Below are positions 8,356-8,732 of a stretch of 14,936 nt of DNA, in pieces (positions within the stretch are counted from its first letter, which is position 1; the number at the start of each line of letters is the position of its first letter). Where the stretch lies: assembly GCF_003334765.1 (NCBI RefSeq), contig NZ_QOWT01000054.1; one strand, written 5' to 3'. Under the pieces are notes generated by a model, which searched no databases, was not told where the DNA came from, and worked only from the letters and a program-made list of their open reading frames with translations. Both the position numbers and the translations under genes were made by a program. This DNA is from Escherichia coli (lineage in GTDB: Bacteria > Pseudomonadota > Gammaproteobacteria > Enterobacterales > Enterobacteriaceae).

Positions 8356-8558
8356 GGTTAAATCTCCGTATGGTTTCGTTCATACGGAATAACCACGCCG
8401 TAAAAAATGCGCAGAGTCCCTGAAGTGACCTCCAACCGGGCAATATCTCAGGCACTCTGTGATAACCCGATTGTCGTCTCCGGACTGACGGCTGAATTTT
8501 CAGCGTTGTTTTTTTAATGCCAAAAACCGGTTACAGATAAGACTGTGAGGAGGGAGCT

Positions 8559-8732
8559 ATGGTGATACACAAAACGGTGTGCAGGGATTGTGGTAAGGCA
8601 ATTACTCATAATACGGATGTTGCCCATTACCGGAATACCGATCGTCGGCGCTGTCTACTGACGTCACTGCTGGTGCTGACTCTGCCTGTCGGTTTATGCC
8701 GTCAATATTCAACGCACCGGATCCCCGGCTAA
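8559..8732 (+). CDS. Candidate small protein (57 aa) with a CxxC motif and hydrophobic C-terminal half
   Basis: Not in the ORF track (under 60 aa). ATG at 8559-8561 is preceded by a near-consensus Shine-Dalgarno (GAGGAGGGAG at 8547-8556, 5-nt spacer). Hand translation: MVIHKTVCRDCGKAITHNTDVAHYRNTDRRRCLLTSLLVLTLPVGLCRQYSTHRIPG, stop TAA at 8730-8732. Divergent from the yfjJ-like gene. Confidence 0.3.
   Translation: MVIHKTVCRDCGKAITHNTDVAHYRNTDRRRCLLTSLLVLTLPVGLCRQYSTHRIPG

Follow-up and report, generated by a model that had tools for sequence, protein, structure and literature searches.

A 57-codon open reading frame beside a Gp2/YfjJ-like gene is probably a decayed allele of a gene for a small, putative zinc-ribbon protein of Escherichia coli islands

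Results

A 57-codon ORF with a strong Shine-Dalgarno sequence lies in a CP4-like island

We analyzed a 14,936-nt stretch of E. coli DNA (hereafter the window), in which a 57-codon ORF occupies positions 8559–8732 of the plus strand (ATG at 8559, TAA at 8730–8732) and encodes the product MVIHKTVCRDCGKAITHNTDVAHYRNTDRRRCLLTSLLVLTLPVGLCRQYSTHRIPG. A Shine-Dalgarno sequence, GAGGAGGGAG, can be read directly at 8547–8556 of the same strand, with its AGGAGG core (8548–8553) 5 nt before the ATG. Codons 8–11 (8580–8591, plus strand) retain a first cysteine knuckle, CRDC, and residues 32–47 of the 57-aa product form a hydrophobic stretch, CLLTSLLVLTLPVGLC. The 57 codons, the position of the AGGAGG sequence and the CRDC motif are all present as the initial annotation of this DNA had described them. 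It had also called the ORF unannotated, which holds only for the ORF track that it used: the 951-nt stretch from 8300 to 9250 recurs in the E. coli FORC_069 chromosome at 100% identity, and at this identical locus NCBI PGAP/RefSeq calls exactly the 8559–8732 ORF as the hypothetical protein WP_001387062.1. In the protein collection, at least 1,000 contigs encode the exact 57-aa protein; its sources give it the names 'Uncharacterized protein' and 'hypothetical protein', and it is listed with a UniRef cluster (representative A0A2X7RJU0_ECOLX).

There are 104 ORFs of at least 40 aa in the 14.9-kb window, and AGGAGG followed at a distance of 3–9 nt by ATG occurs twice, against 0.75 expected, a count that was reached in 30 of 200 shuffles. 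The window sequence by itself is therefore no proof of a gene, and it is the comparative data below that supply it.

The annotated surroundings in FORC_069 are those of a CP4-like island. Its gene order runs from T6SS sheath remnants through two 'putative zinc ribbon protein' genes, the inovirus-Gp2/YfjJ-like gene, the small ORF and a 62-aa hypothetical gene to hha, an AlpA-like HTH gene, a YeeP-like GTPase gene and Ag43. The small ORF is divergent from the Gp2/YfjJ-like gene (7786–8355, minus strand), from which it is separated by a gap of 203 nt. Other parts of the island are in decay as well: in the region ~3050–8355 (L001 annotation, offset +1299) a truncated tssC lies beside tssB and a 'putative zinc ribbon protein' gene is frameshifted, and the same annotation places an IS1 transposase fragment further downstream.

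On the other side of the ORF, the next two genes, the 62-aa hypothetical gene (8745–8933) and hha (8972–9184), are both on the minus strand, and the next plus-strand gene, which encodes the AlpA-like regulator, starts at ~9883 (+1299 offset from L001), ~1.1 kb past the ORF stop. This arrangement bears on an earlier suggestion that the ORF might be a leader peptide or upstream ORF controlling a downstream gene in the divergent regulatory region. The ORF is short, has a strong Shine-Dalgarno sequence and sits in an intergenic, regulatory location, as such a peptide would; however, no co-oriented gene follows it, and what is conserved among its homologues is the amino-acid sequence itself, not just translation. 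We rejected the leader peptide on gene order, and its probability is close to nil.

The 62-aa frame was annotated by PGAP as the hypothetical protein WP_044168572.1 and has a lipoprotein-like start (MPVILLLFSGC). We considered this minus-strand ORF as a partner gene and rejected it, because it is not conserved as an ORF in homologous loci: the frame has no conserved start or end in 11 of them. A DNA block at ~8790–8850 is well conserved, and what occupies 8745–8933, downstream of hha, is probably either the remnant of a gene or a non-coding element.

The divergent intergenic region is conserved

The region at 8356–8546, between the minus-strand YfjJ/Gp2-like gene and the small ORF, is conserved and presumably holds the promoters of both. 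It is 87–94% identical between the allele classes described below and is more conserved than the ORF. A promoter scan of this upstream region returned one sigma-70-like match (minus strand, 8523–8496), which is not above chance expectation, and no terminator-like site on its plus strand exceeded chance expectation. We found no covariation or compensatory changes and no Rfam match in the conserved upstream region, and the leader of the 8559–8732 ORF folds no better than its shuffles (z = -1.1).

Two elements within this region were noted. A perfect 7-bp hairpin (CCGTATG-loop-CATACGG, 8365–8386) adjoins the ribosome-binding site of the Gp2/YfjJ-like gene (start 8355, minus strand); its stems are invariant in 13 loci and its loop carries a 5-nt indel, and the hairpin might regulate how that gene is translated. 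About 45 nt upstream of the small ORF, two small hairpins and a run of seven T form a terminator-like element on the plus strand (8473–8515), which is conserved in all allele classes, with no covariation and no Rfam match. This element could terminate a plus-strand transcript that is antisense to the Gp2 leader, or act as an attenuator for transcription entering the ORF.

The ORF belongs to a family confined to E. coli-type chromosomal islands

Of 5,426 complete E. coli genomes, 3,496 contain matches to the ORF region, the median being two copies in each. Nearly every match is chromosomal, and for almost all of the matches that were sampled PGAP has a hypothetical protein at the site. We compared twelve further loci, 76–100% identical to the ORF region, with that of the window (13 loci in total). 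Gene order is identical in all 13 (zinc-ribbon genes, Gp2-like gene, small ORF, hha-like gene), and the small gene is always divergent from the YfjJ/inovirus-Gp2-like gene and convergent with the hha-like gene. The family has no similarity to the neighboring 'putative zinc ribbon protein'.

The homologous ORFs are normally 65 or 66 codons long, and two classes stand out, exemplified by MVIRKTVCRDCSNAITHNTECCPSCASTASSGYYRNTDRLLFLLTLLPVLILAVVSGVSVFVLLQ (class A) and MVIRKKKCRDCGNAITHNTVCCPYCGSVDPFGYYRNTDRIVTILLALIIVVLLTTVSVSVCILCSW (class B). RefSeq members comprise proteins of 65 aa (WP_001545803.1, WP_000236763.1 and WP_001547002.1) and of 66 aa (WP_001297219.1 and WP_001336481.1), and each main intact allele is present on ~1,000 or more contigs. 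Databases name them 'hypothetical protein', 'predicted nucleic acid-binding Zn ribbon protein' or 'zinc-ribbon domain-containing protein'. The Shine-Dalgarno motif GAGGAGG is preserved in 11 of the 13 loci. In the two exceptions, L009 (1190–1212) and L010 (1190–1406), it reads GGAGAGG or GGCGAGG and the ATG has become ATC; L010 is additionally frameshifted and is marked as a pseudogene by PGAP.

When a HMMER profile of the family was run against 1.84 billion representative proteins, most hits were variants, fragments or read-through chimeras of the E. coli type. The exceptions were four longer, dissimilar proteins that matched weakly (E = 2.7e-7 to 6.9e-4) and were not counted as family members. 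A scan of one genome per GTDB species yielded only L005, a 683-nt contig (NZ_WACP01000054.1) in a Paenibacillus assembly. This contig (Paenibacillus tengchongensis assembly, coverage 0.59) encodes the first 41 family residues at 76% identity, and is almost certainly E. coli contamination. Phage and plasmid collections gave only one 20-residue fragment and mislabelled chromosomal pieces, genuine phages and plasmids being without the family. NCBIfam, PADLOC, Pfam, PDB sequence and Rfam searches produced no significant match for the family. Literature searches by accession and peptide string returned no paper on it, and those on yfjJ/hha/Ag43 islands returned general island papers, none of them on the ORF. 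Lastly, the E. coli K-12 islands CP4-57, CP4-44, CP4-6 and KpLE2 contain no homologue or remnant, so the family has neither a K-12 gene name nor a counterpart in K-12 ribosome profiling. The family is confined to E. coli-type chromosomal islands and is without a characterised member.

The family evolves as a protein-coding gene

In our sample of 13 DNA loci, which is small and recombinant and whose pairwise comparisons are non-independent, pN/pS over the gap-free codons 1–39 of 10 distinct alleles is 0.26 in the annotated frame, which has no stop; the other five frames give 0.36–2.17 and contain 5–31 stops. Class A and class B differ by a dS of 1.1–1.4 at an omega of 0.09–0.19. Between L002 and L013, 15 of ~25 synonymous sites have changed versus 14 of ~92 non-synonymous sites (Fisher p = 2e-5), and third positions are 59% identical versus 83% for positions 1 and 2. 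The C-terminal halves of class A and class B share only ~50% DNA identity, yet both encode strongly hydrophobic stretches of 25–27 residues, and the Kyte-Doolittle 19-residue maximum of intact alleles is 2.8–3.0 in both classes. Constraint is not uniform: closely related class A alleles show an omega near 1, and CCPGY, without the fifth cysteine, is read in some otherwise intact alleles.

The initial annotation had proposed to check whether the frame and its Shine-Dalgarno sequence are conserved in homologous islands, and the family passes this check: frame, start and Shine-Dalgarno sequence are kept, and synonymous changes greatly exceed non-synonymous ones. Judged by this frame-specific pattern of substitution, the family is a genuine protein-coding gene with codons 1–39 under purifying selection. 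The same data weigh on the alternative that there is no gene, the ORF being a chance frame and the conservation that of an element acting as DNA or RNA, for instance promoters or a transcript antisense to the Gp2 leader. Frames of this length do arise commonly by chance, and the non-coding 203 nt upstream are better conserved than the ORF. However, substitutions follow one frame, stops occur in all of the others, hydrophobic helices are preserved at only ~50% nucleotide identity, and no RNA-structure signal was detected. We rejected a spurious ORF or RNA element for the family on the frame-specific substitution pattern, and regard it as very improbable.

The small ORF is also the most diverged segment of a locus that is otherwise 88–100% conserved. 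Between L008 and L013 the flanks are 99–100% identical; codons 1–39 are 91% identical and differ almost solely at third positions (77% identical, versus 99% for positions 1 and 2), and from codon 40 onward identity is 53%. The helix-coding half and the 3' flank have been swapped as a block between otherwise 99% identical loci, and L011 has a recombination breakpoint inside the ORF. These patterns point to a locus that is a recombination mosaic of old allele classes.

Intact members are predicted to be tail-anchored proteins with a putative zinc ribbon

In an alignment of 21 intact members, M1, V2, I3, I15, H17, N18, T19, C21, C22, P23, Y33, Y34, R35, L52, V60 and L63 are invariant, and C8, R9, D10, C11, N36, T37, D38 and R39 are at least 90% conserved; a 16-member alignment was similar. 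The N-terminal motif C8-x2-C11(G)-x9-C21-C22-P-x-C25(G), which spans residues 8–26, has the spacing of mini zinc ribbons. Residues 5–28 repeatedly gave sub-threshold matches to UPF0547 and Zn_ribbon_3 (best 8e-4 to 9e-4, single members), DZR, DZR_2 and zf-ChsH2. From the motif and these sub-threshold Pfam matches we assign a putative zinc ribbon to the intact members. Intact homologues share the pattern CxxC(G)-x9-(C)CxxC(G) with the mini zinc ribbons Zn_ribbon_3 (PF13248), UPF0547 (PF10571), DZR (PF12773) and zf-ChsH2 (PF12172), but taken as a whole the family does not reach Pfam significance with any of them, and the window allele retains a single knuckle. Mini zinc-ribbon domains are often N-terminal to a membrane segment.

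A comparable layout, an N-terminal zinc ribbon and a hydrophobic segment, was found in the PHROG phage families phrog_38187 (E = 2e-5), phrog_10292 and phrog_14275, to which intact members are weakly similar (E = 2e-5 to 1e-3) over the zinc ribbon and the hydrophobic segment that follows it. These profiles, however, span 136–178 positions, including a large C-terminal part without counterpart in the small-ORF family, and the window allele has no PHROG match at an E of 0.1 or better.

Intact homologues carry the motif YYRNTDR, have no signal peptide and end in a single C-terminal helix of 25–27 residues. AlphaFold2 models one helix over residues 32–65 (pLDDT ~90), residues 1–30 being of low confidence (pLDDT ~49). 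The N-terminal part is basic (K5–K7, R9, R35 and R39), and the helix ends 0–3 residues from the C-terminus. Given the positive-inside rule and the need of Cys4 zinc sites for a reducing cytoplasm, the intact product would be a tail-anchored inner-membrane protein with its putative zinc ribbon at the cytoplasmic face. ElaB, YqjD and YgaM of E. coli are tail-anchored inner-membrane proteins. The intact homologues resemble them in lacking a signal peptide and in having a helix that ends 0–3 residues before the C-terminus, but there is no sequence relationship, the cytoplasmic domain is a different one, and the window allele is without the anchor. The ribbon would be expected to bind a partner, protein or nucleic acid, tied to island biology. 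In kind, the intact protein would be unexceptional, a small membrane protein bearing a mini zinc ribbon.

The window allele is damaged in both the zinc-ribbon motif and the C-terminal helix

Alignments of the 8559–8732 allele against the twelve homologous loci revealed several lesions. A 1-nt deletion at ~8616/8617 (codon 20) and a 29-nt deletion between 8625 and 8626 add up to a net loss of 30 nt with the frame restored. Together they remove the second knuckle, CCPxC, with the invariant C21, C22 and P23, as well as the linker, and leave the deletion scar DVAH (8616–8627, plus strand, codons 20–23) in place of ECCPxC...G. The juxtamembrane YRNTDR (8628–8645, plus strand) is retained and reads HYRNTDR, its first Y being replaced. 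At 8646–8651, two T-to-G substitutions give RR versus the LL that opens the helix in homologues. What follows, by hydropathy and alignment, is a transmembrane-helix remnant of 16 residues, CLLTSLLVLTLPVGLC (8652–8699, plus strand), inside which an extra G at ~8691 shifts the frame (+1) relative to homologues.

The alignments also identify the C-terminus, RQYSTHRIPG and the stop (8700–8732, plus strand), as non-native. A ~90-nt deletion with its junction at ~8708/8709 has removed the native GVSVFVLLQ end and the stop codon, and past this junction the frame runs in formerly non-coding DNA to the TAA at 8730. The start of the tail derives from out-of-frame coding sequence, and the last seven residues, STHRIPG, are read from DNA beyond the stop of intact alleles. 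The 'hydrophobic tail' of the initial annotation hence exists as a hydrophobic stretch, but merely as a 16-residue remnant of a helix of 25–27 residues. Its Kyte-Doolittle 19-residue maximum is 1.39 versus 2.8–3.0 in intact alleles, and a rough Hessa-scale insertion sum, which is indicative only, is positive in the window allele versus -2 to -5 in intact alleles.

Compared with the RefSeq family of 65–66 aa, the window allele has the same syntenic position, orientation, Shine-Dalgarno sequence, start, first knuckle (CRDC) and (H)YRNTDR motif. It differs in lacking the second knuckle CCPxC, the 25–27-residue C-terminal helix, which is truncated and frameshifted, and the tail anchor, its C-terminus being non-native. 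The zinc-ribbon deletion scar also occurs with an intact C-terminal helix (P0023 and P0045), and an intact zinc ribbon with the window-type C-terminus (P0018 and P0024). Since the lesions are found separately in these proteins, they are independent derived events that were combined by recombination.

The Shine-Dalgarno sequence and the ATG survive, so a 57-aa peptide may still be made; this product could neither complete a four-Cys zinc site nor, by our estimate, insert stably in the membrane. For these reasons the window copy is probably a non-functional remnant. The earlier suggestion of a real small protein is thus supported for the gene family, whereas the 8559–8732 copy carries frame-disrupting lesions relative to homologues and looks decayed.

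The window allele is rare among complete genomes

At 99% identity or more, the window allele was found in only 59 of the 5,426 genomes, including the O104:H4 outbreak lineage. The O104:H4 strain 2009EL-2050 (NC_018650.1) carries an intact class A copy at 63710–63930 and a window-type 57-aa copy at 878392–878582, in two different islands. Amino-acid variants within the 57-aa cluster strike even C8 and C11, which is compatible with relaxed constraint, the counts being too low for proof.

The window copy might have a residual or altered function, in that its -1 and -29 deletions together leave the reading frame in register, the ORF is open and the 57-aa sequence is widespread. The 57-aa product would then be a functional shortened variant, with one Cys knuckle, a short hydrophobic segment and a new polar tail, that has kept or changed its activity. 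Its intact Shine-Dalgarno sequence and ATG would fit, as would the recurrence of the exact sequence, 100% conserved among diverse strains and carried by at least 1,000 contigs, and 67-aa relatives that share its C-terminus (P0024) do retain an 18-residue hydrophobic stretch of favorable hydropathy. However, the three residues that it lacks, C21, C22 and P23, are invariant in intact members; Ser, Thr, Pro and Gly occur within the 16-residue stretch, whose insertion estimate is unfavorable; STHRIPG comes from post-stop DNA; and variants in the cluster reach even C8 and C11. The identity across strains can be attributed to recent common descent and not to constraint. We therefore consider a functional 57-aa variant unlikely, though it deserves some credit.

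The broken alleles lend themselves to another explanation, namely that the family encodes a toxin acting on membranes, as in type I toxin-antitoxin systems, or some other peptide with a toxic or exclusion role, which is silenced by an antisense or cis RNA, and that the alleles were inactivated by selection against toxicity. Like the type I toxins Hok, Ldr, TisB, Ibs and Zor, the family members are small, have a single hydrophobic helix and lie in mobile or accessory DNA. Consistent with this idea are the strong Shine-Dalgarno sequence, the many inactivated alleles (L009 and L010 with mutated start and Shine-Dalgarno sequences, alleles with frameshifts, and that of the window) and the exchange of the helix-coding half and 3' flank as a block. 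Against it, no antisense promoter or terminator exceeded chance in three allele classes, and there was no Rfam match, no covariation in the conserved leader and no PADLOC match. The small-ORF family differs from these toxins in its added Cys-rich constrained domain of 39 residues, its C-terminal helix and the absence of an antisense RNA signal in our scans; a putative zinc-ribbon domain of this length under purifying selection is atypical and is not known from Hok, Ldr, TisB, Ibs or Zor. Moreover, allele decay is equally expected in cryptic islands. Taken together, the toxin explanation has a slim chance.

Discussion

Collectively, we are fairly confident that the 8559–8732 ORF is a decayed allele of a genuine small-protein gene of E. 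coli islands, whose intact product is predicted to be a tail-anchored protein with a zinc ribbon. The existence of the gene is carried by the substitution pattern across homologous loci, and the decay of the window copy by its lesions relative to them.

On a more far-reaching interpretation, the intact family would serve CP4-like E. coli islands as a lineage-specific effector. The cytoplasmic domain of this tail-anchored zinc-ribbon protein would be under strong constraint, its helix would recombine together with the 3' flank as expected for a specificity determinant, and the window allele would be one of many knock-outs. If so, the specificity might be for phage exclusion, for a toxin/immunity function, or for membrane tethering of the neighboring Gp2-like replication protein. 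We consider this effector reading distinctly unlikely.

As a degraded allele, the window copy is unlikely to be informative by itself. Roughly two thirds of complete E. coli genomes contain the family to which it belongs, and an ORF that was picked by eye below a size cutoff is in this way linked to a genuine gene family. Because island-encoded small membrane proteins have received little study, an intact allele would be a reasonable candidate for tagging and phenotyping.
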